Below are positions 9,606 through 43,820 of a stretch of DNA of 64,000 bases, piece by piece. Made by a program: the position numbers and the translations under genes. How positions within the stretch are numbered: position 1 is the first letter of the stretch; each line of letters starts with the position of its first letter. The notes beneath the pieces were generated by a model. The model saw only the letters and a program-made list of their open reading frames with translations, had not been told where the DNA came from and did not search any database. This DNA comes from Mobula hypostoma (taxonomy: Eukaryota): assembly GCF_963921235.1 (NCBI RefSeq), contig NC_086108.1, forward strand, positions 65,908,001 to 65,972,000. The letters run 5' to 3'.

Positions 9606-11773
9606 AAAAAAGTATAAACAGCACCATTTACAAACATCAAATTAGTCTCAGAACCACATGAGAAAAAAAATTGAGTAGACTTAAGATGATTAAGAGATTA
9701 TTGAAATTTAGAAAGAATGCCCACAAGAAAATAAATCTCAAAATAAATATGGTGACATAAATGTACTTCAATAATAAATTTACCTTGAACTTTGTAATTA
9801 TAAGATAAATAAATAAATAGCTACATAAGTTATTTCAAGGCTCAACAAGCTGGTTGCAAGCAGAAAGTTTCATATATTTCTGAAATGTAGGATGAATGAT
9901 AGATGTTTTGGAATTAAGATGAGGAGACTTCTTCACTGGGAGATACATCTTTGGAATTATCTAGACCACTGGGCTGAACACTTAGCCATTGAGAATCAAA
10001 ACAAAGATCAATAGAAGTCTGAATATTAGGGGGAATCAATGCTGTTGAATAAAGTAGAGCTCATTGGATATGAGCCAGATGAAGTGTGAAACAAACTCAA
10101 ACCAGGTGCCCTGATCCTGCTCCTAATTTGTATGTACTTTGCAGAACAGACAGACATTTTTTTTTGTAATTAGACAACGTTATTCACTCTGGTATCATTG
10201 TTAAGATGGGCTGAGATAGAGGGGGAGCTGAAAAATTAAGTAGGTTATGGGATTTGATGCTGTGCCCAAATCAGATAGGAGATTGTAGATGGGATATGAT
10301 AGACAATCTTCTTTAACCTGAAGCACTGACCAGGGTGCAGAAGAAATCAATGCAGAAGTATAGAATTTTTGGTTTGGTGAAATCCTTAATTGCATAAAGC
10401 AGCCCAATCCAAGATCTGTTTATGGATAGTAATGGAATCAGGGTGTTTGCAGAAAAGTGGACAAGGTAGGGAGTCAACAACAGTCTTACTGATTTACAGG
10501 ATAAGCCTGAGATTTGGTACGGCCCGCTCCTGCTTCATAACTTGGATTCTTATTGCCAGCGCCTTCTAATATTTGAAATAAAAACTGAAACTAATGAAAA
10601 ATCTTTGAGGGGTAGAAAATGTGATTCGAATATTTACAAAAGGAGGGACATGGTTTATGAAAGGAAAATGCTGTTGACTAGTCCTTGAGGCTGTGATGAG
10701 TAGAATAGATAAGGGGGACAATGGATATGAATTTTTGAAATGTAATTGCTAAAAGTCCTGCACATTAAACTGATTATCACACTGAATTTTGGGTAAAATA
10801 CTGACATGGATTGATAATTATTTATCTGAATGAGTAGAATAAATGGATCATTTTCAAACCAGCAAGCTTTTTATAGATGTTAGAGTTGATTACTAAGGAT
10901 ATGATCTCGGGATACATGGAGGCACATGATAAAGTCAGCATGGTTTCCTCAAGGGAAAATCTTGCCAGACAAATCTGTTGGAATTCTTTGAAGAAATAAC
11001 AAGCAGGATAGTCAAATGAAATTCAGTTGATGTTGTGTACTTGGATTTTCAGAAGGCCTTTGACAAGGTGCCGCACATGAGGCTGCTTAACAAGCTGCAA
11101 GCCCATGCATGGTATTACAAGAAAGATCCTAGCATGCATAAAGCAGTGGCCCATCGGCAGGAGGAAAAGAATGGGAATAAAGGAAGCCTTTCGTGGTTTG
11201 GCTGCCAGTGACTAGTGGTTTTCCACAGGAGTCTGTATTGGAACCAATTCTTTTAAAGTTATATGTCAATGATTTGGATGATGGAATTGATGGCTTTGTT
11301 GCTAAGTTTGCAGATAATACGAAGATAGGTGGAGGGACAGGTGATTTTCAGAAAATAGGCTACAGAAGGACTTAGATTAGGAGAATGGGTAAAGAAGTGG
11401 CAGATGAAGTACAGTGTCGGGAAGTGTATGGTCATTCACTTTGGTAGAAGAAATGAAAAGGCTGACTATTTTCTAAATGGAAAGAAGATACAGAAATCTG
11501 AGGTGTAAAGGGATTTGGGAGTCCTTGAGCAGGATTCCTTAAAGGTTAATTTGTAGGTTGAGTCTGTGGTAAGGAAGTTAAATGTGATGTTAACATTAAT
11601 TTCAAGAGGACCAGAATATAAAAGCAAGGATGTAATGTTGAGACTTTAAAAAGTTACTTGGATACTACTCAGTTGGAGTATTGTGAGCAATTTTGAACCC
11701 CTATCTTAGAAAGGATGTGCTGAAACTGGAGAAGATTCAAAGGAGGTTAATGAAAATGATTCCAGGATTAAAC

Positions 11774-14700
11774 TAGAATGGTTGGGGGGTGGGAATCAAA
11801 TTAAAGAGGCTAGGCGTGAGGAGGTTAGTTCACGACAGAGGGATGGGAACCAGTGTAGGGAGACAGAGGGGTGTAAAGTGAGGGTAGAAGCAAAAAGTAC
11901 AAAGGAGAAAAGTAAAAGTGGCAGGCCGACAAATCCAGGGCAAGCATTAAAAAGGGCCACTTTTCAACATAATTGTATAAGGGCTAAGAGAGTTGTAAAA
12001 GAGCGCCTGAAGGCTTTATGTGTCAATGCAAGGAGCATTCGTAGTAAGGTGGATGAATTGAAAGTGCAGATTTTTATTAATGATTATGATATAGTTGGGA
12101 TCACAGAGACATGGCTCCAGGGTGACCAGGGATGGGAGCTCAACGTTCAAGGATATTCAATATTCAGGAGGGATAGACATGAAGGAAGGGGAGGTGGGGT
12201 GGCGTTGCTGGTTAAAGAAGAGATTAACGCAATAGAAAGGAAAGACATAAGCCGGGGAGATGTGGAATCGATATGGGTAGAGCTGCGTAACACTAAGGGG
12301 CAGAAGACGCTGGTGGGAGTTGTGTACAGGCCACCTAACAGTAGTAGTGAGGTCGGAGATGGTATTAAACAGGAAATTAGAAATGTGTGCAATAAAGGAA
12401 CAGCAGTTATAATGGGTGACTTCAATCTACATGTAGACTGGGTGAACCAAATTGGTAAAGGTGCTGAGGAAGAGGATTTCTTGGAATGTATGAGGGATGG
12501 TTTTTTGAACCAACATGTCGAGGAACCAACGAGAGAGCAGGCTATTCTGGACTGGGTTTTGAGCAATGAGGAAGGGTTAATTAGCAATCTTGTAGTGAGA
12601 GGCCCCTTGGGTAAGAGTGACCATAATATGGTGGAATTCTTCATTAAGATGGAGAGTGACATAGTTAATTCAGAAACAAAGGTTCTGAACTTAAAGAGGG
12701 GTAACTTTGAAGGTATGAGAAGTGAATTAGCTAAGATAGACTGGCAAATGACACTTAAAGGATTGACGGTGGATATGCAATGGCAAGCATTTAAAGGTTG
12801 CATGGATGAACTACAACAATTGTTCATCCCAGTTTGGCAAAAGAATAAATCAAGGAAGGTAGTGCACCCGTGGCTGACAAGAGAAATTAGGGATAGTATC
12901 AATTCCAAAGAAGAAGCATACAAATTAGCCAGAGAAAGTGGCTCACCTGAGGACTGGGAGAAATTCAGAGTTCAGCAGAGGAGGACAAAGGGCTTAATTA
13001 GGAAGGGGAAAAAAGATTATGAGAGAAAACTGGCAGGGAACATAAAAACAGACTGTAAAAGCTTTTATAGATATGTAAAAAGGAAAAGACTGGTAAAGAC
13101 AAATGTAGGTTCCCTGCAGACAGAAACAGGTGAATTGATTATGGGGAGCAAGGACATGGCAGACCAATTGAATAATTACTTTGGTTCTGTCTTCACTAAG
13201 GAGGACATAAATAATCTTCCGGAAATAGTAAGGGACAGAGGGTCCAGTGAGATGGAGGAACTGAGCGAAATACAAGTTAGTAGGGAAGTGGTGTTAGGTA
13301 AATTGAAGGGATTGAAGGCAGATAAATCCCCAGGGCCAGATGGTCTGCATCTTAGAGTGCTTAAGGAAGTAGCCCAAGAAATAGTGGATGCATTAGTGAT
13401 AATTTTTCAAAACTCGTTAGATTCTGGACTAGTTCCTGAGGATTGGAGGGTGGCTAATGTAACCCCACTTTTTAAAAAAGGAGGGAGAGAGAAACCGGGG
13501 AATTATAGACCGGTTAGCCTAACGTCGGTGGTGGGGAAACTGCTGGAGTCAGTTATCAAGGATGTGATAACAGCACATTTGGAAAGCGGTGAAATGGTCG
13601 GACAAAGTCAGCATGGATTTGTGAAAGGAAAATCATGTCTGACAAATCTCTTAGAATTTTTTGAGGATGTAACTAGTAGAGTGGATAGGGGGGAACCAGT
13701 GGATGTGGTATATTTGGATTTTCAAAAGGCTTTTGACAAGGTCCCACACAGGAGATTAGTGTGCAAACTTAAAGCACACGGTATTGGGGGTAAGGTATTG
13801 GTGTGGGTGGAGAATTGGTTAGCAGACAGGAAGCAAAGAGTGGGAATAAACGGGACCTTTTCAGAATGGCAGGCGGTGGCTAGTGGGGTACCGCAAGGCT
13901 CAGTGCTGGGACCCCAGTTGTTTACAATATATATTAATGACTTGGATGAGGGAATTAAATGCAGCATCTCCAAGTCTGCGGATGACACGAAGCTGGGTGG
14001 CAGTGTTAGCAGTGAGGAGGATGCTAAGAGGATGCAGGGTGACTTGGATAGGTTGGGTGAGTGGGCAAATTCATGGCAGATGCAATTTAATGTGGATAAA
14101 TGTGAAGTTATCCACTTTGGTGGCAAAAATAGGAAAACAGATTATTATCTGAATGGTGGCCGATTAGGAAAAGGGGAGGTGCAACGAGACCTGGGTGTCA
14201 TTATACACCAGTCATTGAAAGTGGGCATGCAGGTACAGCAGGCGGTGAAAAAGGCGAATGGTATGCTGGCATTTATAGCGAGAGGATTTGAGTACAGGAG
14301 CAGGGAGGTACTACTGCAGTTGTACAAGGCCTTGGTGAGACCACACCTGGAGTATTGTGTGCAGTTTTGGTCCCCTAATCTGAGGAAAGACATCTTTGCC
14401 ATAGAGGGAGTACAAAGAAGGTTCACCAGATTGATTCCTGGGATGGCAGGACTTTCATATGAAGAAAGACTGGATGAACTGGGCTTGTACTCGTTGGAAT
14501 TTAGAAGATTGAGGGGGGATCTGATTGAAACGTATAAGATCCTAAAGGGATTGGACAGGCTAGATGCAGGAAGATTGTTCCCGATGTTGGGGAAGTCCAG
14601 AACGAGGGGCCACAGTTTGAGGATAGAGGGGAAGCCTTTTAGGACCGAGATTAGGAAAAACTTCTTCACACAGAGAGTGGTGAATCTGTGGAATTCTCTG

Positions 14701-14910
14701 CCACAGGAAACTGTTGAGGCCAGTTCATTGGCTATATTTAAGAGGGAGTTAGATATGGCCCTTGTGGCTACGGGGGTCAGGGGGTATGGAGGGAAGGCTG
14801 GGGCGTGGTTCTGAGTTGGATGATCAGCCATGATCATAATAAATGGCGGTGCAGGCTCGAAGGGCCAAATGGCCTACTCCTGCACCTATTTTCTATGTTT
14901 CTATGTTTCT
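11774..14910 (+). mobile_element. Young CR1 LINE, 5'-truncated at the ORF1 stop, with full ORF2 and 3' UTR
   Basis: Uninterrupted 3-kb ORF; (TTTCTATG)n tail; taaac duplicated at 11769-11773 and 14910-14914. Confidence 0.93.
11782..14814 (+). CDS. CR1 ORF2: APE endonuclease plus reverse transcriptase
   Basis: EN motifs NARSI, GITETW, GVVYRPP, MGDFN, SDH; RT motifs NYRPVSLTS, YLDFQKAFDKVPH, GVPQGSVLGP, KSADD (normally FADD). No in-frame ATG before the EN domain. Confidence 0.92.
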   Translation: MGGGNQIKEARREEVSSRQRDGNQCRETEGCKVRVEAKSTKEKSKSGRPTNPGQALKRATFQHNCIRAKRVVKERLKALCVNARSIRSKVDELKVQIFINDYDIVGITETWLQGDQGWELNVQGYSIFRRDRHEGRGGGVALLVKEEINAIERKDISRGDVESIWVELRNTKGQKTLVGVVYRPPNSSSEVGDGIKQEIRNVCNKGTAVIMGDFNLHVDWVNQIGKGAEEEDFLECMRDGFLNQHVEEPTREQAILDWVLSNEEGLISNLVVRGPLGKSDHNMVEFFIKMESDIVNSETKVLNLKRGNFEGMRSELAKIDWQMTLKGLTVDMQWQAFKGCMDELQQLFIPVWQKNKSRKVVHPWLTREIRDSINSKEEAYKLARESGSPEDWEKFRVQQRRTKGLIRKGKKDYERKLAGNIKTDCKSFYRYVKRKRLVKTNVGSLQTETGELIMGSKDMADQLNNYFGSVFTKEDINNLPEIVRDRGSSEMEELSEIQVSREVVLGKLKGLKADKSPGPDGLHLRVLKEVAQEIVDALVIIFQNSLDSGLVPEDWRVANVTPLFKKGGREKPGNYRPVSLTSVVGKLLESVIKDVITAHLESGEMVGQSQHGFVKGKSCLTNLLEFFEDVTSRVDRGEPVDVVYLDFQKAFDKVPHRRLVCKLKAHGIGGKVLVWVENWLADRKQRVGINGTFSEWQAVASGVPQGSVLGPQLFTIYINDLDEGIKCSISKSADDTKLGGSVSSEEDAKRMQGDLDRLGEWANSWQMQFNVDKCEVIHFGGKNRKTDYYLNGGRLGKGEVQRDLGVIIHQSLKVGMQVQQAVKKANGMLAFIARGFEYRSREVLLQLYKALVRPHLEYCVQFWSPNLRKDIFAIEGVQRRFTRLIPGMAGLSYEERLDELGLYSLEFRRLRGDLIETYKILKGLDRLDAGRLFPMLGKSRTRGHSLRIEGKPFRTEIRKNFFTQRVVNLWNSLPQETVEASSLAIFKRELDMALVATGVRGYGGKAGAWF

Positions 14911-16223
14911 AAACGGCTTGTCATATGAGGAGTGTTTGATGGCTCTGGGCCTCTTTTCACTGGTATTCAGAAGAATGAAGGATGACCTCATTGAAACCTA
15001 TCTAATGGTGAAAGGCCTTGATAGAGTGGATGTGGAGAGGATATTTCCTAAGGTAGGAGTGTCTGAGACCAGAGGACACAGCCTCAGAATAGAGGGGCAT
15101 CCTCTTAGAACGGAGATGAGGGGGAATTTCTTTAGCCAGAGAGTAATGAATCAGTGAAATTCATTGCCAAAGGCAGCTGTGGAGGCCAACTCTTTATGTA
15201 TATTTAAGGCAGAGGTTGATTGATTCTTGATTGGTCAGAGCATGAAAGGATGCGGGGTGAAGGCTGGGAGGGAAAATAGATCAGCCATGATGAAATGGCA
15301 GAGCAGACTCGATGGGCCAATGGCCTAATTCTATTCATATACCTTATGGTCTTATATTTTGAACTATTTGGGCTTTGCATTCATTTTAACAACTGTTAAT
15401 TTTATAACGGTTCAGAGGTTTAGCATTATCTTTGTAGATGCAAAGGTAACTAAAGGTTATTTTCTGGTGTTCCAGCAATAATCCTGTAACAGTTATTAGT
15501 GTCTATATGGCAGTGACAAGCAAGAACTTGAGTAAACTAACTCAGAATACACACCCACTTACTCTATTAGCACAGAAAATTTTAAGAATGTGAACCAATA
15601 TTTTCTTGAAATTAAGATTGTCAAAATATTTATTTATTGCATACAATAATGGGTTAGTATTAGGATTGTAATCTAACCTTCTTGGATTGTGAACCCACTA
15701 TTAGATAAGTGATTATCTATAGTTGTTTGTTAAGCACTCTTTTTTTGAAAGTGAATGAGTAGCAAAGAGGGTAGGAAACACTGCAGAAGGATTAATTCCA
15801 CAGACACAAGTGATTTCATTTTTTTTGAGGTGAGAACAATATTTATAGTGCAATGATTATATTGTAAATCAGAGGTTTGGACCCTACAAAACAGATGTGA
15901 ATTCGAAGAAATGAGATACATAACTACAGTCAATGCTGTTCATTGCGATATCTTGGTAACCAAAATAACCAGATAAACAGCATTTCATTTGACATTTTAC
16001 TTGTTAATAAACTTAACAACATTTCAATGTTTGTCTGATAGTTATGCCCTTAGCTCTCTTTTACAAGCAGGCAACAGGGGTATCTGCTGAAATCCAGAGG
16101 ATACCTTCTTCATTATGCAAATAAAGATCTTTTATCATGATTGGGACCTAACCACTTTAATCCAGACCATGGGGAAGCCGTTGTTGATTATTCCACCAAG
16201 CACATTTAATGGGAGTATAATAA

Positions 16224-17559: not shown

Positions 17560-18118
17560 TTGAGTATTGTGAGCAGTTTTGGGCCCCTTATCTAAGAAAG
17601 GATGTGCCAGCATAGAAGAGGGTCCAGATGAGGTTCACAAGAATGATCCTGGGAATGAAAGGTTAAATATATGAGGGGCATTTAATGCATCTGGTCCTGT
17701 ACTTGTTGAAGAATAGAAAAATGAGAGGGGATCTCTTTGAAACCTATTAAATATTGAAGGGCTTAGATAGAGTGAACATAGAGAGGGTGTTTCCTATAGT
17801 GGAGGAGCCTAGGATCAGAGGGCACAGCCTCAAAAATAGAAGGACGTCCCTTTAGAACAGAGATGAAGAGGAATTTCTTTAGCCAGAGGGTAGCAAATCT
17901 GTGAAATTTACTGCCACAGATGGCTGTGGAGCCCAAGTCAGGATATATTTAAAGCAAAAGTTGATAGATTCTTGATTAGTAAGAATGTCAAAAGTTACAG
18001 GAAGAAGGCAGGAGATGGTGTTGAATGGGATAATAAATCAGCCGTGATGGAATGGCAGCGCAGACTTGATGGGCTAAATGGCCTAATTCTGCTCCTACAC
18101 AATACCTTATGGTCTTAT
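17560..18118 (+). mobile_element. CR1 LINE 3' fragment (degraded)
   Basis: LEYCEQFWAPYLRKDV..., NFFSQRV; CR1 3' UTR ggcctaattctgctccta; cttatggtcttat tail. Confidence 0.8.
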
Positions 18119-18179
18119 TCACTGAAAAATTTATGGTACTATTCTGTAACATGTGAAGATCAAAGTGAAATATATATAT

Positions 18180-18633
18180 ACAACACACATCAAAGTTGCT
18201 GGTGAACGCAGCAGGCCAGGTAGCATCTCTAGGAAGAGGTACAGTCGATGTTTCAAGCCGAGACCCTACGTCAGGTCTAACTGAAAGAAGAGCTAGTAAG
18301 AGATTTGAAAGTGGTAGGGGGAGGGGGAGATCCAAAATGATAGGATAAGACAGGAGGGGGAGGGATGGAGACAAGAGCTGGACAGTTGATTGGCAAAAGG
18401 GATATGAAAGGATCATGGGACAGGAGGCCCAGGGAGAAAGAAAAGGGTGAGGGGGGGGGAACCCAGAGGATGGGCAAGGGGTATAGTGAGAGGGACAGAG
18501 GGAGAAAAAGGAGAGAGAGAAAGAATGTGTGTATATGGATGGGGTACGAGGAGGGGGTGGGGCATTGGCGAAAGTTTGAGAAGTCAATGTTCATGCCATC
18601 AGGTTGGAGGCTACCCAGATGGAATATAAGGTG
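18180..18633 (-). mobile_element. Penelope-like element 3' part: GIY-YIG C-terminus plus decayed hammerhead
   Basis: Minus strand encodes QHLIFHLGSLQPDGMNIDFSNFRQ, then a pyrimidine-rich tract and CTGACGT...GAAACATC; same family as 31379..32138. Confidence 0.8.
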
Positions 18634-30479: not shown

Positions 30480-31437
30480 AGTTATATAGACCTAATGCTT
30501 GTGCTTAGTTAGAGTAACTATTGTATTCTATCCTTGTTTGTTTTAAATTACTGTATTTTTGGGTACAAGTATTTTATGTTTTGATGCATTCATTACTTTT
30601 GTAAAAATTATTTGTTAAGGTGTAATGAAGACATGCTACATTTTCAAATTTGTTTCACAATTTTCTTCCAAATTCAATTTGTTATTTGTAGAGTAAAAAT
30701 GTTCATCTGAAATTTGTCCTTGCTTAAGGATGTATCCACATGCTCTTGAAATGCAGTGACTTGTGACTGATTGTTTTCATACCAAATGAGATCATATTTG
30801 ACATGCAGCGGGTGCACAATTCAATATTTTCAAATTAATTCGTGCAAATTAATTTGTCATTTTTAGTATCAACTTCCCCCACATTTTAAAATTTAAATGC
30901 ATATTGACAGAACTTAAAGGAAATACAGAGAGTGAAGTATTATGTTAAATAATACTATTCGTTAATCCTTAAGTACATTTTTTTCTAGAGGAACAACCAA
31001 TTTAGAAAGAATTACCATTGAAATCACATTTGCACGCGTTCATTTATTTGTGTACTTTTGAAAGTAAATTCATGCATTGGAATTTTTAATGTGTAAAAAT
31101 GACAAAACATTTTTATGTACATTGCAGTATAGTTTCCCACAGGTCGAACATTTTTAGAGGGCAAGGAGTTGACTCTGGAAGTGGTAGCTGAGAACTTTTT
31201 GCAGGCTGGTATTACGTTGGTTGAAGATCTTGGTAAAGAAATCTTTCAAGTCTAAATATTAGATCTTGAAATGGTGAGAAAAATCAGAGCAACTGAACTA
31301 CTATCCTGTATAAAAACGATGACAAACACTGTCATTTTCTACCATTCTGAAACTTTGATAGGACACTTCCTAATGTGACACACATAAAAGTTGCTGGTGA
31401 ACGCAGCAGGCCAGGCAGCATCTATTGGAAGAGGTAC

Positions 31438-31473
31438 AGTCGACGTTTCGGGCCGAGACCCTTCGTCAGGACT
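31438..31473 (-). ncRNA. Minimal type I hammerhead ribozyme motif (mirror copy)
   Basis: Exact reverse complement of 32004..32039. Confidence 0.8.
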
Positions 31474-32003
31474 AACTGAAAGAAGAGATAGTAAGCGATT
31501 TAAAAGGGGGAGTGGGAGGGGGAGATCCGAAATGATAGGAGAAGACAGGAGGGGGAGGGATGGAGCCAGGAGCTGGACAGTTGATTGGCAAAAGGGATAT
31601 GAGAGGATCATGGGACAGGAGGCCCAGGGAGAAGGAAAAGGGGCAGGGGGGGAACCCAGAGGATGGGCAAGGGGTATAGTGAGAGGGACAGGGGGAGAAA
31701 AAGAATGTGTGTGTCCCTTGTACCCCATCTGTTATTTATTTATTTATATACACACATTCTTTTTCTCTCTCTCCTTTTTCTCCCCCTGTCCCTCTCACTA
31801 TACCCCTTGCCCAACCTCTGGGTTCCCCCCCTCCCCCTTTTCCTTCTCCCTGGGCCTCCTGTCCCATGATCCTCTCATATCCCTTTTGCCAATCAACTGT
31901 CCAGCTCCTGTTTCCATCCCTCCCCCTCCTGTCTTCTCCTATCATTTCGGATCTCCCCCTCCCCCTCCCCCTTTCAAATCTCTTACTAGCTGTTCTTTCA
32001 GTT

Positions 32004-32039
32004 AGTCCTGACGAAGGGTCTCGGCCCGAAACGTCGACT
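32004..32039 (+). ncRNA. Minimal type I hammerhead ribozyme motif (sense to CMPK1)
   Basis: Helix I AGUC/GACU; core CUGACGA 32008-32014 plus an extra A; helix II GGGU-CUCG-GCCC; GAAA 32028-32031; palindromic ACGU replacing helix III; GUC cleavage triplet ending at 32035. Confidence 0.8.
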
Positions 32040-32780
32040 GTACCTCTTCCAATAGATGCTGCCTGGCCTGCTGCGTTCACTAGCAACTTTTATGTGTGTT
32101 GCTTGAAATTCCAGCATCTGCAGATTTCCTCGTGTTTGCACTTCCTAATGTGAGTTAGCATAGTCTCAAAGTATTTTCTGCAGTAGGCGTATGGGATCAT
32201 TTTACTCGCAGGACAGCAGTTCTTTTGGAGCATTGTCATCTAAGCAGCTATTGTTATTTCATTCACCATACAATGAGATCTTTCAAACATAGCTTTTCTC
32301 ATTGTCCATTGTTTCTTTTTCTCTGCATCCCTCACTCCACGATGAAAGTTCTGATTTCCAGTAATGCTGCATACCACAGTGCTGGTCCTGACCACATTAC
32401 TGTTCTTCCACTTACTCCTTCCCTTTGCGTATGAAGTATCTAATAACTAATTGCAGTGAGGGCTAGGTGGGGCCACAACTGAAATAATTGAATATCCTGC
32501 TGGAATGTCAATCCAATGTACAGTACCAGTTAAAATGTTATAAATATATCGAGGACGCTAAAGAATATTTTCTAAAATCAAGACAGGTTCTGTGCATTGG
32601 AAATCATTATAAACACTGGAAATATGGAACAGTTCAGCTGCCATTGGTAAAGTGACAGATTTACATTCCTATTGCAAAGATTCTGTGAGAACAATTCACC
32701 TAAATTTTGACCTTCCGTAACAAATGCCGATTAAATATCAGGATTTTCAGTACTTCATCAATTTGTGTTTGAGAACATCA

Positions 32781-33413: not shown

Positions 33414-35007
33414 GGCAGATAAATCCCCAGGGCCAGATGGTCTGCATCCCAGAGTGCTTAAGGAAGTGGCCCAAGAAATAGTGGATGCATTAGTGATAAT
33501 TTTTCAAAACTCGTTAGATTCTGGACTAGTTCCTGAGGATTGGAGGGTGGCTAATGTAACCCCACTTTTTAAAAAAGGAGGGAGAGAGAAACCGGGGAAT
33601 TATAGGCCGGTTAGCCTAACGTCGGTGGTGGGGAAACTGCTGGAGTCAGTTATCAAGGATGTGATAACAGCACATTTGGAAAGCGGTGAAATGATCGGAC
33701 AAAGTCAGCATGGATTTGTGAAAGGAAAATCATGTCTGACGAATCTCATAGAATTTTTTGAGGATGTAACTAGTAGAGTGGATAGGGGAGAACCAGTGGA
33801 TGTGGTATATTTGGATTTTCAAAAGGCTTTTGACAAGGTCCCACACAGGAGATTAGTGTGCAAACTTAAAGCACACGGTATTGGGGGTAAGGTATTGGTG
33901 TGGGTGGAGAATTGGTTAGCAGACAGGAAGCAAAGAGTGGGAATAAACGGGACCTTTTCAGAATGGCAGGCGGTGACTAGTGGGGTACCGCAAGGCTCAG
34001 TGCTGGGACCCCAGTTGTTTACAATATATATTAATGACTTGGATGAGGGAATTAAATGCAGCATCTCCAAGTTTGCGGATGACACAAAGCTGGGTGGCAG
34101 TGTTAGCAGTGAGGAGGATGCTAAGAGGATGCAGGGTGACTTGGATAGGTTGGGTGAGTGGGCAAATTCATGGCAGATGCAATTTAATGTGGATAAATGT
34201 GAAGTTATCCACTTTGGTGGCAAAAATAGGAAAACAGATTATTATCTGAATGGTGGCCGATTAGGAAAAGGGGAGGTGCAACGAGACCTGGGTGTCATTA
34301 TACACCAGTCATTGAAAGTGGGCATGCAGGTACAGCAGGCGGTGAAAAAGGCGAACGGTATGCTGGCATTTATAGCGAGAGGATTCGAGTACAGGAGCAG
34401 GGAGGTACTACTGCAGTTGTACAAGGCCTTGGTGAGACCACACCTGGAGTATTGTGTGCAGTTTTGGTCCCCTATTCTGAGGAAAGACATCTTTGCCATA
34501 GAGGGAGTACAGAGAAGGTTCACCAGATTGATTCCTGGGATGGCAGGTCTTTCATATGAAGAAAGACTGGATGAACTGGGCTTGTACTCGTTGGAATTTA
34601 GAAGATTGGGGGGGGATCTGATTGAAACGTATAAGATCCTAAAGGGATTGGACAGGCTAGATGCGGGAAGATTGTTCCCGATGTTGGGGAGGTCTAGAAC
34701 GAGGGGTCACAGTTTGAGGATAGAGGGGAAGCCTTTTAGGACCGAGATTAGGAAAAACTTCTTCACACAGAGAGTGGTGAATCTGTGGAATTCTCTGCCA
34801 CAGCAAACTGTTGAGGCCAGTTCATTAGCTATGTTTAAAAGGAAGTTAGATATGGCCCTTGTGGCTACAGGGGTCAGGGGGTATGGAGGGAAGGCTGGGT
34901 TCTGAGTTGGATGATCAGCCATGATCATAATAAATGGCGGTGCAGGCTCGAAGGGCCGAATGGCCTACTCCTGCACCTATTTTCTATGTTTCTATGTTTC
35001 TATGTTT
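33414..35007 (+). mobile_element. Young CR1 LINE, 5'-truncated, RT domain uninterrupted
   Basis: ORF 33412..34905 nearly identical to the C-terminal half of 11782..14814, with KFADD intact; (TTTCTATG)3 tail. Confidence 0.93.
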
Positions 35008-38729: not shown

Positions 38730-41700
38730 TTTGCTGAGGAGAGAGCCATAGGATTTGAGTAGATATTGTTCCGTTATTTATTCCTTCCTTCTTTCTTATT
38801 GCACATTTAGAGCAGTGGGGTTCCCAGGCAGGACAGTGGAATGCTCCTCTTGTAGGATGTGGGAAGACAGGGAAACCTCCAATGTCCCCGATGACTACAT
38901 TTGCAAGAAGTGCATCCAGATCCAGCTTCTAACAGGCGGTGTTAAGGAGTTGGAGCTGGAACTGAATGAACTCTGGATAATTCAAGAAGCTGAGGGGTTG
39001 ATAGACAGGACGTAGAAGGAGGCAATTACAGCCAAGGTGCTGGACACAGGTAACAAGGTGACTGTCAGGAGGAGGAAAATGGATAGGCAGCCAGTGGCTG
39101 TTCCCCTCAACAACAGTTATATCACTTTGGATACTGTTGTGGGGGGGGGGGGGGGTGAGGTGATGACATAGTAAAGGAAAGCCACAGTGATCAGGTCTCT
39201 ATGTCAGAGTCCAGCTCTGTGGCTTAGAAGGGAAGGGAAAGAGAAGATGCAAGCTGTACTGATAGGAGATTCATTGGATAAAGTAATAGAAAGGAGGTTC
39301 TGTGGACTAGAACGAGATTCTGAGGTGGTATGTTGCCTCCTGCATGCCTGGATCAGGGGCATCTCAGACTGAGTCCAAAGTATTGATAAGTGGGAGGGCG
39401 AGCAGCCAGAAGTCATGGTCAACGTCAGTACCAATGAAATGGGTAGGAGGGTTGCCAAGGTCCGTCAAAGTGAGTTCAGGGAGTTAGGTGCCAAGTTGAA
39501 GGACAGGGCCTCCAGGGTTGTGATCTTAGGATTGTTACCTGTGCAATGTGCCAGTGAGGCCAGAACTAGGATGATCATACAATTTAACCCACAGCTAAGG
39601 GTTGCTGCAGGAGGGAGCTCTTCAGGTTTTTGGATAAAAGGACTCTCTTCCAGGGAAGGCGGGACATGTACAGGAGAGATTGTTTGCACCTGAACTCGAG
39701 GGGGACTAACATCATAGCAGAAAGGTTTGCAAGTGTTGCATAGAAGGGGATGGGGTGGTTTAAACTGGAATTGCAAGGGGATGGGAACCAGAATGCCAGA
39801 CCGCATAGTGGAGTGGCTGTAGAGAAAGATGCTGTTAAACCTACATAAAAAGTCAAGAATCAAAAGATTGAGCATGGTGGGACTACTATTCTGAGCTGCG
39901 TATATTTCAGTGCGAGGAGTATTCTAGGAAAGGTGGATGAGCATAGGGCATGGATTAGCACGTGAAATTATTTAGTGAGACTTGGTTGCAAGAGGGGCAG
40001 GACTGGCAGCTCAGTCCTCGAGGGTTCTATTGCTTGAGGCTTGATAGAGCAGGAGGGATTAAAGGGAGAGGGGTGGCATTACTAATCAGGGAAAATGTCA
40101 TAGCAGTGCTCAAATAGGACAGACTGGAGAACTCATCTAGTGGGTAGAACTGAGGAATAAGAAAGGTAAAACTACATTAATGGGATTATATTATAGTCCA
40201 CTCAACAGTCTGCAAGATGTAGAATTGTGATGAAGAGAAGCAAATTTGTAGAGTGATCGCAGACTGTTGCAAGAAACATAGGGATGTGATAGTAGGTGAT
40301 TTTAACTTTCCACACATTGACCCAACTAGGGAGAGTGTGATACTAGATCTCCTATTAGGGAATGAGACAGGGCAGGTGACAAGTTTGTGCAAGGGAACAC
40401 TTTACATCTAGTGATCATAATGCCTTTAATTTCAATGTAATTATGGAAAAAGATATGTCTGGTCTGTGGGTTGAGATTCTAAACTGGAGAAAGACCAATG
40501 TTGATGGTATCAGAAAGGATCTGGCAAGTGTGGATTGGGACAGGCTGTTTTCTGGCAAAGGTGTACTTTGTAAGTGCGACTCCTTCAAAAGTATTATTTT
40601 GAGAGTACGGAGTTTGTATGTTTCCTGCCAGAATCAAAGGTAAGGACAACAGGTTTAAGGAACGTTTGTTTTTTGAGAGATTTTGAGGCCCTTGTTAAGA
40701 AAAAGAAGGAAGTTCATAGCAGGTCTAGGCAGTAGGAACAAATGAGGTACTTGAGGAATATAAGAAATGCAAGAGAGTAAATCAGGAGAGCTAAAAGAAC
40801 TCAAGACATTGCTTTAGCAAACAATGTGAAGGAGAATCCTAAGGGTTCTTACAGATATATTAAGGACACAAGGATAGCAAACGACAAAATTTGTCCTCAG
40901 GAAGATCAGAGTAGTAATCTATGTGTGGAACTGAAAGAGATAGGAGAGGTCTTAAATGGATTATTTACATCTGTATTTACTCGGGAGATGGACACAGAGT
41001 CTATAGAAGTGAGGCAAAGCAGCAGCAAAGTCATGCACCCTATACAGATTACAGAAGAGGAGGTGTTTGCTGTCTTGAGGCAAATTAATGTGGATAAATC
41101 CCCAGGGCCTGACAAGATATTCCCTGTATCCTCTGGGAGGCTAGTGCAGAAATTGCAGCAGCCCGAGCAGATATATTTGAAACTTCCTTAGCCATGATGA
41201 AGTTTGGAGGAAAGCTATTGTTGTTCCATCGTTTAACAAAGGCTCTAAGAATAAGCCAGGGTATTATAGGCTGATGAACTTGAAATCAGTAGTGGGAAAG
41301 TTATTGGAAGGTATTCTAAAAGACTGGATATCCAAGTATTTGGATAGACAGGGACTGAATGGAGATAGTCAGCATGGCTTCGTGTGTGGTAGGTCATGTC
41401 TAACCTATCTTATAGAGTTTTTTGAGGAAGTTACCTGGGAAGTTGATGAAAGCAAGGCAGTTGATGCTGTCTACATGGACTTTAGCAAGACCTTTGACAA
41501 AGTCCCACATGGGAGGTTGGTCAGTCATTTGGTATTCAAGGTGAGGTAGTAAATTGGATTAGACATTGGCTTCATGGGAGAAGCCAGAGAGTGGTAGTAG
41601 ATGGTTGCCTCTCTGACTAGAGGACTGGTATCTGTTGTTGCTTGACATCTATATCAATGGTCCGGATGATAATATGATAAACTGGATCAGCAAGGAAGAC

Positions 41701-43820
41701 TATCAGAGCTTGCAGCAGGATCTGGATCAGCTGGAAAAATGGGCTGAAAAATGGCAGATGGAAATTAATGAAACAAGCATGAGGTGCTGTACTTTGGGAG
41801 GATTAACTAGCATAGGTCTTATTCGGTGATTGACAGGGCACTGAGGAGTGTGGTAGAACAGAGTGTTCGGAGAATACAGATCTATAATTCCTTGAAAGTG
41901 ACATCACAGTTAGATAGGGTTGTAAAGAAATCTTCTTTCAGATTGGCCTTCATATGCCCATGTACTGAGTACAGAAGTTAGGATGTTATTTTGAAGTTGT
42001 ATAAGATGTTGGTGAGGTCTAATTTGGAATATTGTGTGCAGTTTCAGTCAACTACTTACAGGAAGAATGTAAATAAGATTGAAAGAGCGCAGAAAGAACT
42101 TAGATGGAAGTTGCTGGGACTTGAGGACCTGAGTTATAAAGAAAGGTTGAATAGAACATAGAACATAGAACAGTACAGCACAGTACAGGTCCTTCGGCCC
42201 ACAATGTTGTGCCGACCCTTAAAAACCCTGCCTCCCATATAACCCCCCACCTTAAATTCCTCCATATGCCTGTCTAGTAGTCTCTTAAATTTCACTAGTG
42301 TATCTGCCTCCACCACTGACTCAGGCAGTGCATTCCATGCACCAACCATTCTCTGAGTAAAAAACCTTCCTCTAATATCCCCCTTGAACTTCCCACCCCT
42401 TACCTTAAAGCCATGTCCTCTTGTATTGAGCAGTGGTGCCCTGGGGAAGAGGTGCTGGCTGTCCATTCTATCTATTCCTCTTAATATCTTGTATACCTCT
42501 ATCATGTATCCTCCCAACCTCCTTCTCTCCAGAGAGTAAAGCCCCTAGCTCCCTTAATCTCTGATCATAATGCATAGTCTCTAAACCAGGCAGCACCCTG
42601 GTAAATCTCCTCTGTACCCTTTCCAATGCTTCCACGTCCTTCCTATAGTGAGGCGACCAGAACTGGATACAGTACTCCAGGTGTGGCCTAACCAGAGTTT
42701 TATAGAGCAGCATCATTACCCCGCGATTCTTAAACTCTATCCCTCGACTTATGAAAGCTAACACTCCATAAGCTTTCTTAATTACCCTATTTACCTGTGA
42801 GGCAACTTTCAGGGATCTGTGGAAATGTACTCCAAGATCCCTCTGCTCCTCCACACTTCCAAGTATCCTGCCATTTACTTTGTACTCTGCCTTAGAGTTT
42901 GTCCTTCCAAAGTGTACCACCCCACACTTCTCTGGGTTGAATTCCATCTGCCACTTCTCAGTCCATTTCTGCATCTTATCAATGTCTCTCTGCAATCTTC
43001 GACAATCCTCTACACTATCCACAACACCACCAACCTTTATGTCATCTGCAAACTTGCCAACCCACCCTTCTACCCCCACATCCAGGTAGTTAATAAAAAT
43101 CATGAAAAGTAGAGGTCCCAGAACTGATCCTTGTGGGACACCACTAGTCACAACTCTCCAATCTGAATGTAGTCCCTCCACCATAACCCTCTGCTTTCTG
43201 CAGGCAAGCCAATTCTGAATCCACCTGGCCAAACTTCCCTGGATCCCATGCCTTCTGACTTTCTGAATAAGCCTACCATGTGGAACTTTGTCAAATGCCC
43301 TAGTAAAATCCATGTAGATCACATCCACTGCACTACTCTCATCTATATGCCTGGTCACCTCCTCAAAGAACTCTATCAGGCTTGTTAGACATGATCTGCC
43401 CTAGGTCCTAACCTAATAGGTTAGGACTTCTTTTCCTAGAATGTAGAAGATTGAGGTGAGATTTGTTAGAGGTACATAGGATAAAAGCAAGCAAGCTTTT
43501 TCCACTGAAGTTGAATGAGAATACAATTAGAGAGGATTGGTTAAGGGTGAAAGGTAAAATGTTTAAGGGAAACATAAGGGGAAACTTCCTTGACTCAGAG
43601 AATGTGGAGTGTAGAACAAGCTGCCAGAAAACATGGCGGATACAGGTTCAATTTCAACATTTAAGAGAAATTTGGATAGGCACATGGATGGTGGAGGGGG
43701 GATGCAGTATGGAGGGCTTTGGGCCGGGTGCAGGTCGCTAGGGCTAGGCAGATTAGTGATTCAGCATGGACAAAGGGCTGAAGGGCCTGTTTATGTGCTC
43801 GAGTGTTCCATGGCTCTATA
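38730..43820 (+). mobile_element. Near-full-length degraded CR1 (ORF1 zinc finger and SGNH esterase; ORF2 EN and RT), split by 42151..43401
   Basis: ORF1 remnants VECSSCRMWE...YICKKC, VLIGDSL, VCCLLHA, VNVSTNE, HLNSRGTN; ORF2 remnants VGDFNFP, VDKSPGPDKI, SQHGFV, YMDFSKTFDKVPH. Confidence 0.85.
42151..43401 (-). mobile_element. Younger 5'-truncated CR1 nested antisense in the old CR1
   Basis: ORF 42468..43358(-): YMDFTRAFDKVPH...GVPQGSVLGP...KFADD; (TTCTATG)3 tail at 42151-42171; aatag duplicated at 42150-42154 and 43415-43419. Confidence 0.9.

Follow-up and report, generated by a model that had tools for sequence, protein, structure and literature searches.

The 64,000-nt stretch of DNA analysed here (the window) contains a young CR1 LINE copy whose long ORF2 lies behind an ORF1 stop codon and has no start codon near its 5' end, which raises the question of how the second protein of such elements is made. 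Translation of the second ORF of LINEs has been called an open question (PMC3894237), with answers given only for L1 and SART1, in both cases reinitiation. The first-pass annotation of this locus proposed that ORF2 may be produced as an ORF1-ORF2 fusion by -1 slippage on a U_UUA_AAC heptamer. Comparative data support this proposal for the family and relatives of the flagged copy, not for that copy itself: esterase-type vertebrate CR1 LINEs probably (we put the probability at roughly 0.75) make ORF2 by programmed -1 frameshifting on this heptamer, giving an ORF1-ORF2 fusion. No report of a -1 frameshift in CR1 was found in the literature searched; older CR1 papers lay outside that search.

The young copy reads ATT AAA CTA GAA TGG... 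in the ORF2 frame (IKLEWLGGGNQ), and this frame, as initially described, is open back through TTA-AAC-TAG, lies at -1 relative to the TAG, and ends with the TGA at 14812-14814. The 1010 codons originally assigned to it hold for a count from TTG 11782, not from the CTA at which the frame is taken to begin in the table below. The ORF encodes a basic linker of ~80 residues, an APE endonuclease (Pfam matches PF03372/PF14529), and a reverse transcriptase (PF00078) with the motif SADD, which is FADD in the sister copy. The endonuclease motifs NARS (codon 87), ITETW (codon 112), and VYRPP (codon 186) all precede the first in-frame ATG, in agreement with the earlier statement that none occurs until deep inside the endonuclease domain. 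Short tandem repeats at the 3' end and 5' truncation are traits of the esterase-type CR1 LINEs, as is the SGNH esterase ORF1 that is present in the old copy of the window and in relatives. From this layout and the likeness of the junction to those of published CR1 consensuses, the element appears to be a CR1.

The flagged copy is a dead, 5'-truncated CR1 relic inside an older CR1, with a break made by microhomology on the heptamer. Positions 11767-11776 read A-TTA-AAC-TAG, and all sequence up to 11767 is the ORF2 of the host element (...MIPG), whose family diverges from the young copy at 11769 in 251/50/222 contigs. The A in the first heptamer position was correctly ascribed to the 5' junction: it belongs to the host, and other family copies have T there. 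The exact X_XXY_YYZ heptamer is thus absent from this copy, and because the junction fell on the heptamer, the copy has no ORF1 and is incapable of forming a fusion. Frameshifting by the flagged copy itself is ruled out.

Table. Features of the young, host, and old CR1 copies in the window
Feature	Positions	Strand	Remarks
Host element: ORF2 fragment of an older CR1, decayed, upstream of the insertion	10928..11767	+	tblastn/blastn to ORF2
Last six heptamer bases, TTAAAC	11768..11773	+	common to host target; 5' microhomology / target-site duplication
TAG, ORF1 stop codon	11774..11776	+	adjoins heptamer
ORF2, 1013 codons, -1 frame to ORF1	11773..14814	+	from CTA 11773
G-rich run, candidate stimulator	11780..11793	+	7-20 nt past heptamer; G4Hunter-type score in top 1.6% of element windows
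First in-frame ATG of ORF2, within endonuclease domain	12412..12414	+	codon 216 counted from 11767
3' UTR, terminal TTTCTATG repeats	14815..14909	+	
TAAAC, 3' copy of target-site duplication, behind element tail	14910..14914	+	host ORF2 resumes, to about 15270
Sister copy of young family, shorter, 5'-truncated	33414..34996	+	97.9% identical; stops short of junction
Decayed ORF1 of the old CR1 (coiled coil and SGNH esterase behind a Cys-rich N-terminus)	38820..39765	+	stops and frameshifts
Full heptamer TTTAAAC of old copy	39759..39765	+	TGG next, in place of stop; G-run 39777-39785
Old CR1, decayed ORF2 remnant, -1 frame	39766..42152	+	tblastn

The missing base is supplied by other copies of the young family. 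The loose ends of 57 contigs in one organism (agreement, 0.80) and of 92 contigs in a second one (agreement, 0.83) restore U_UUA_AAC_UAG, and the restored end matches an ORF1 protein (P0210), the counterpart of which is absent from the truncated copy. In the -1 frame of the family consensus, a TGA is found three codons before TTT and ATG is absent, so the two ORFs overlap by only a few codons that hold just the heptamer. An in-frame ATG for ORF2 or loss of the heptamer, either of which had been named beforehand as speaking against slippage, was not seen as far as examined: the family has the full heptamer and no in-frame ATG near the junction. The same layout is found in an unrelated, sturgeon-type copy, L003, with a TGA upstream and NARS (codon 36) ahead of the first Met (codon 44). 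L003 came from a metagenome scan that gave 17 loci; it was the sole full-length match and, of the 3 loci inspected, the only CR1 ORF1. In the old copy of the window, the full heptamer does end a decayed zinc-finger/esterase ORF1, as previously noted, but it is followed by TGG rather than a stop codon, and the distance from DGLHL to TTA is 82 nt versus 72. The -1 frame of this copy (FKLELQGDGNQ) bears the likeness to that of the young copy that was claimed for it. Searches with the esterase piece of the old copy recover ORF1 proteins of CR1; the decayed esterase pieces are unrecognised by Pfam, and a word-based protein search with one of them gave no match.

Published consensuses extend the pattern to 12 vertebrate species. 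In supplement Table 2 of PMC13343379, the exact heptamer followed by a stop codon (TAG in 11 cases, TAA in 6, and TGA in 1) is found at the ORF1 end in 18 of the 22 rows listed of 23 matches; these rows show the first 400 nt of each consensus, come from related lineages, and were read by eye after a search conditioned on the motif. Twelve synonymous or first-base variants of the heptamer gave 19 matches in the searched part of the same supplement, none of them at an ORF1 end. Parts 8 and 14 of that supplement show the junction in only 2 of 33 CR1 rows, both with the heptamer, so these rows provide no real denominator. The heptamer falls in the ORF1 zero frame as X_XXY_YYZ in the family consensus, the old copy, L003, and all 18 published junctions; in the copies examined, the downstream ORF is open in the -1 frame through it. 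Conservation among vertebrate CR1s, a check suggested in the first pass, is thus seen in the nucleotides themselves, in lineages ranging from cartilaginous fishes to lizards and crocodilians, in a junction sample that includes no birds or mammals. Among the best-supported family rows listed, no indel is seen at the heptamer. The searchable supplements of PMC4316615 and PMC11303007 yielded no heptamer junction, no CR1 junction came up when viral and prokaryote collections were scanned by pattern and by protein, a set of presumed RNA sequences had no loose end before 11768 among those listed, and only 4 reads matched in a raw-read set.

At the protein level, Leu-Asn-stop ends 68 of the 77 ORF1 proteins of relatives that reach the last esterase motif and all 66 of those with the standard 26-residue tail; with a query devoid of the C-terminus, this end was seen in 12 of 13 matches reaching that motif. 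(L310-N311 is also invariant in an alignment of hand-picked rows, which was left out of the evidence.) The preceding residue varies, with 14 identities among 49 clusters. A protein-level test for a U-ending codon at this place gave p values of 0.0002, 0.009, 0.10, and 0.16, significance being lost with stricter clustering. Glu precedes Leu-Asn in a single protein of the 66 (P0126), which excludes the first U of the heptamer there, and the -1 frame of one frog family reads V-K-L, implying G_UUA_AAC; GUU is a tolerated first triplet in listed slippery sites (PMC3542737). From codon use alone, about 1-2% of x-Leu-Asn ends would be expected to read T-TTA-AAC. Conservation of the heptamer thus exceeds what the protein needs, judging from the lack of synonymous variants at the junctions and, more weakly, from the protein-level test. 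The mere presence of TTTAAAC in the window was rejected as significant: the motif occurs 16 times versus 16.8 expected, so weight attaches only to where it lies, at the end of ORF1, and to the fact that it is conserved.

The heptamer fits the X_XXY_YYZ pattern and was rightly called a canonical slippery site. We infer slippage, a fusion product, and a pause, which could work as follows. The slippery site would comprise the last two codons of ORF1, and most ribosomes would terminate at the stop codon that follows, releasing ORF1p. A minority would slip one base back, with tRNA-Leu moving from UUA to UUU and tRNA-Asn from AAC to AAA, and read through a variable basic linker into the endonuclease and reverse transcriptase, making a fusion product of ~1,320 residues at a low ratio. 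Canonical -1 frameshift signals require a 3' structure 5-9 nt away. Folding of the sequence downstream of the heptamer, as suggested in the first pass, revealed no stable stem (z from -0.93 to +0.54 in 5 folds) and no pseudoknot-forming stem; a long-range duplex was no better than controls (-20.0 versus a control mean of -20.8 kcal/mol). No conserved quadruplex was found downstream either: a two-tier pattern is seen in the flagged copy only and is missing in 2 of the 3 sequences compared. With no stem or pseudoknot found, the CR1 site is likened in function to a canonical two-part signal but is not classed as one. The pause might instead be due to slow termination at the neighbouring stop codon, to the G-run that follows it, or to both; a quadruplex, a long-range contact, or a protein might also act as stimulator. 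The G-richness remarked on earlier is evident in both copies of the window, but 4 of the 18 published junctions in PMC13343379 lack a run of at least 4 G.

The most serious rival, in our judgment unlikely, is termination-reinitiation, in which ORF2 would be restarted beside the ORF1 stop at an AUG (as in UAAUG) or a non-AUG codon to give a separate ORF2p, and the heptamer would be a termination or restart context. Reinitiation is the mechanism on record for SART1 and a proposed one for mammalian L1 (PMC5972666, PMC3894237), and the lack of any frameshift-stimulating structure found helps it. Systems of the SART1 and TURBS types are recognized by an AUG overlapping or beside the stop and by UGGGA 40-90 nt upstream or a structure downstream. 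An in-frame AUG overlaps the stop as UAAUG in 3 of the 18 junctions in supplement Table 2 of PMC13343379, but none is present there in the other 15, in the young family, or in L003, so that most lineages lack it. Non-AUG restart is possible in TURBS systems, but the codon at the would-be restart place varies (GAA, GGT, GTT, GAT, AGC, and others). L003 has UGGGA 81 nt upstream of the stop; the old copy has none within 150 nt upstream, and only 4 of 33 clusters have Trp-Asp/Glu, which forces UGGGA, at a distance of 13-30 codons upstream. Reinitiation also leaves unexplained the invariant, correctly framed X_XXY_YYZ and its G_UUA_AAC variant.

It is improbable that the heptamer is conserved for a reason other than slippage (an essential Leu-Asn end, a signal in the RNA or DNA, polymerase slippage, or use as a splice acceptor) and that ORF2 is made otherwise. 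The invariance of Leu-Asn would fit such a constraint, but protein constraint cannot fix the codons and the preceding base, the alignment with the crystallised ZfL2-1 esterase stops at profile position 309 of 313, and the last ORF1 residue is of low confidence in a structure model (pLDDT 37), itself weak evidence on the last residues. A nucleic acid signal could be suspected because TTTAAA is palindromic and the ten bases of heptamer plus stop are also found within the 5' UTR in two CR1 consensuses from dogfish in the searched part of PMC13343379. The stingray gene models P0001 and P0227 pass from ORF1 into the -1 frame by an indel or a modelled splice; a splice acceptor was rejected because the stop codon varies and the TAA and TGA junctions give no AG, and the lack of a heptamer indel among the best-supported family rows listed speaks against polymerase slippage. 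Least probable is that a separate or leaky-scanned RNA is used and that ORF2 starts farther downstream on it, at a Met or a near-cognate codon: some amniote ORF2 predictions start at a Met just behind NARS (P0033) and chicken ORF2p is stated as about 95 kDa (PMC2734521), but the young family lacks that Met, starting at its first ATG would remove three endonuclease motifs, and in all copies examined the frame remains open as far back as the heptamer, with linkers of ~30 to 100 residues.

Programmed frameshifting on U_UUA_AAC would make the CR1 enzyme a fusion carrying the coiled coil and esterase of ORF1, set the protein ratio, keep the reverse transcriptase tethered to the ORF1 particle in the manner of retroviral Gag-Pol, change the recognition of intact CR1 copies in genomes, and enlarge the small set of frameshift signals known in vertebrate genomes by one that is poor in structure. 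We lean, by a small margin over even odds, towards a broader version: a single CR1 -1 frameshift site already in use when cartilaginous and bony fishes had yet to diverge, structure-free and dependent on pausing at the stop and G-run, that yields a Gag-Pol-like esterase-endonuclease-reverse transcriptase fusion. If so, ORF2 N-termini are misannotated in CR1, the LINE that dominates in most jawed vertebrates. With seven bases conserved across jawed vertebrates, the CR1 case can be tested by a single synonymous mutation.

Among known systems, SART1 (UAAUG coupling) and L1 (reinitiation) share with CR1 a bicistronic LINE RNA in which ORF2 adjoins the ORF1 stop, but they make a separate ORF2p and need no slippery heptamer. 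In two-ORF Penelope-like elements, ORF1 can be set apart by a frameshift with a pseudoknot, according to PMC8557442, and some of these elements share the SGNH esterase (PMC3905857); they belong to a different retroelement class (GIY-YIG endonuclease), and the pseudoknot present there was not found in CR1. Frameshifts of the -1 type are stated for the APE-type non-LTR elements TRE5-A and TRE3-A of Dictyostelium, which are of another clade and host and lack an esterase ORF1. An arrangement similar to that of CR1 is seen in viral 1a/1b (coronavirus, arterivirus) and Gag-Pol, where an X_XXY_YYZ heptamer likewise ends the upstream ORF and the polymerase is in the -1 frame. Coronaviruses use U_UUA_AAC itself, and equine arteritis virus tolerates the GUU variant. 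At the viral sites, a stem-loop or pseudoknot lies 5-9 nt past the heptamer, whereas in CR1 the stop codon follows directly and only a G-run is conserved; luteo- and dianthoviruses also have a stop codon directly after the heptamer.

The heptamer T-TTA-AAC (U_UUA_AAC), which has the slippery-site form X_XXY_YYZ and lies at the end of the esterase-encoding ORF1 of CR1 elements, is a real, deeply conserved signal, represented in the window by an instance in a dead copy. Decayed LINEs are abundant in the window, and the copies relevant here are listed in the table. As claimed in the first-pass annotation, ORF2 of the young copy (IKLEWLGGGNQ...) is in the -1 frame relative to the TAG and has no in-frame ATG until inside the endonuclease domain. 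Its junction with the host, an older CR1, does fall at the first base of the heptamer: the bases upstream of 11768 belong to the host ORF2, not to an ORF1, and the young copy has no ORF1. Host sequence restarts at 14910, after the TTTCTATG tail of the young element. Since TAAAC flanks this element on both sides and host sequence runs up to its 5' end, the 5' break was sealed through microhomology at the motif. The host target (11768-11773, 14910-14914) reads TTAAAC, where the host family consensus differs; the element, truncated exactly at its own heptamer with a 5-bp duplication, clearly exemplifies 5' truncation joined by microhomology. The old copy likewise retains the full heptamer attributed to it, directly followed by TGG, not a stop, and preceded by 10 extra bases. 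TTTAAAC occurs 16 times in the window versus 16.8 expected, neither more rarely nor more commonly than by chance. Two related C/T-rich repeats on opposite strands (17988-18590 and 31388-32153) have similar open frames and are probably a SINE or LINE tail.

CR1 features in the window
Feature	Position	Description
Long open frame	11710-14814	Encodes APE endonuclease and reverse transcriptase (RT)
A-TTA-AAC-TAG	11767-11776	5' end of the young copy's long frame
First ATG of long frame	12412	Codon 216, downstream of endonuclease motifs NARS, ITETW and VYRPP
RT motif SADD	13975-13986	Young copy, ORF2 otherwise open
Sister copy of young family	33414-34996	97.9% identical; RT motif FADD
Old CR1	about 38820-42150	Broken esterase ORF1, then ORF2 remnant
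TTTAAAC in old CR1	39759-39765	End of broken esterase ORF1

The junction of the young family was recovered from public contigs aligned on positions 11600-12200, by examining their loose ends before 11768. Among those listed, at least 57 contigs from one organism and at least 92 from another share the same 30-base consensus, whose ORF1 frame reads GRFARATEVT. Because this consensus ends in T, the family ends ORF1 with U_UUA_AAC_UAG, in agreement with the C-terminus ATEVTLN of a database protein (P0210). Its -1 frame has a TGA three codons upstream of TTT and no ATG, so that passage from ORF1 to ORF2 is possible only within about five codons, which contain the heptamer.

A search with an esterase piece lacking the C-terminus returned 57 proteins, and 12 of the 13 reaching the last esterase motif end in Leu-Asn. 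Addition of a profile search and cluster members brought the total to 179, of which 102 (fragments and broken copies) failed the motif filter and were dropped; Leu-Asn ends 68 of the remaining 77 ORF1 proteins, including every one of the 66 that have the standard 26-residue tail. Among the named sources are sawshark, skate, rays, catshark, eel, sturgeon, and frogs. The residue preceding Leu has 14 identities across 49 clusters. Residues without a possible U-ending codon occupy this position in 1 of the 49 clusters versus 63 of 294 cases at the six preceding positions, a contrast that fades with tighter clustering (p from 0.0002 to 0.16). Gene models of two stingray copies give F-K-L for the -1 frame; those of one poison-frog family give V-K-L, implying G_UUA_AAC there. 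A GUU first triplet is tolerated in equine arteritis virus (PMC3542737). Two stingray gene models (P0001 and P0227) join ORF1 to ORF2 just upstream of the heptamer and may reflect either naturally occurring indels or errors of gene modelling. Three CR1 proteins of vertebrate type that are assigned to Carnobacterium, Pseudomonas, and a fish/frog parasite (P0007, P0204, and P0240) are probably host contamination.

At the DNA level, a sturgeon-type metagenomic copy (L003) carries CAT-TTA-AAC-TAG; its -1 frame continues open into the endonuclease, and NARS is not preceded by a Met. In the PMC13343379 supplement, which displays the initial 400 bases of each consensus and in which positions were judged by eye, TTTAAAC plus a stop has 23 matches; of the 22 listed, 18 lie at a CR1-type ORF1 end, in 12 species (sharks, rays, chimaera, bowfin, halosaur, coelacanth, bullfrog, alligator, crocodile, and bearded dragon), and 4 elsewhere. 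The stop is TAG in 11 of the 18, TAA in 6, and TGA in 1. Twelve control variants, altered in the first base or by synonymous codon changes, had 19 matches in the visible sequence, none at an ORF1 end, and codon use of these elements predicts T-TTA-AAC for 1-2% of x-Leu-Asn ends. The junctions sampled span cartilaginous fishes to crocodilians and lizards, without birds or mammals. In the visible part of Table S2, dogfish SquAca_CR1-3 and SquAca_CR1-18 have TTTAAAC plus TAR in the 5' UTR just after intron-like signals (GTAGGT and a pyrimidine tract), and the 5' part of AldAff_Crack-2, labelled Crack, resembles the end of a CR1 esterase ORF1, heptamer included.

Judged from sequence, the simplest account is that the heptamer serves -1 frameshifting (probability about 0.75), since its synonymous positions are fixed, it matches X_XXY_YYZ in the correct frame and occupies the entire ORF overlap, any of the three stop codons may follow it, and its sole variation is to another known slippery triplet. 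At the end of ORF1 most ribosomes would terminate, and a fraction would slip and continue through ORF2, extending the product to about 311 + 1013 residues, with a putative pause at the adjacent stop and G-run. A downstream stem or pseudoknot, which the first-pass annotation proposed looking for, did not emerge from folding: the two window copies show no stable local structure downstream (z from -0.93 to +0.54), and neither a pseudoknot stem nor a long-range duplex above controls was found near the site. The site works like a -1 signal, and we do not class it as canonical because this search found no downstream structure. Of three sequences scored, the young copy alone has a quadruplex pattern behind the site; a G-run within about 15 nt recurs in all three (top 1.4-2.3% of windows), and 14 of the 18 listed junctions have four or more consecutive Gs in their visible part. 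The young family linker (11774-11864) has a second, diverged G-rich unit at about 11839-11856, within a three-tier quadruplex pattern; its resemblance to the unit behind the old copy's heptamer suggests a duplication.

Reinitiation after ORF1 termination would fit the lack of downstream structure and account for the in-frame UAAUG (TAA then TG) visible in three shark consensuses among the 18 junctions, yet it leaves the heptamer unexplained and is unlikely as the general route; in UAAUG families both processes could operate. Maintenance of the heptamer by other constraints fits worse than frameshifting and is improbable. Translation of ORF2 from a downstream start, also a poorer fit, is very improbable.

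A full-text search found no report of CR1 frameshifting; CR1 descriptions from the 1990s to 2003 and Repbase notes, outside this search, may mention the overlap. CR1 does not appear in the first 300,000 of 449,034 characters of PMC5009743, nor frameshift, overlap, or start codon in the available text of PMC13343379, and the accessible supplements of PMC4316615 and PMC11303007 gave no match. Accessible parts of PMC3894237 call ORF2 translation from LINE RNA open and do not discuss frameshifting. Parts of PMC3708506, PMC7175516, PMC11835228, PMC3905857, PMC2734521, PMC4255032, PMC5972666, and PMC8557442 served as further background. Within the literature that could be consulted, the probable frameshift signal is new for CR1, with precedents in other retroelements: TRE5-A and TRE3-A require a -1 frameshift (PMC5911963). 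The UAAUG seen in the three shark consensuses resembles the stop-start arrangement of SART1.
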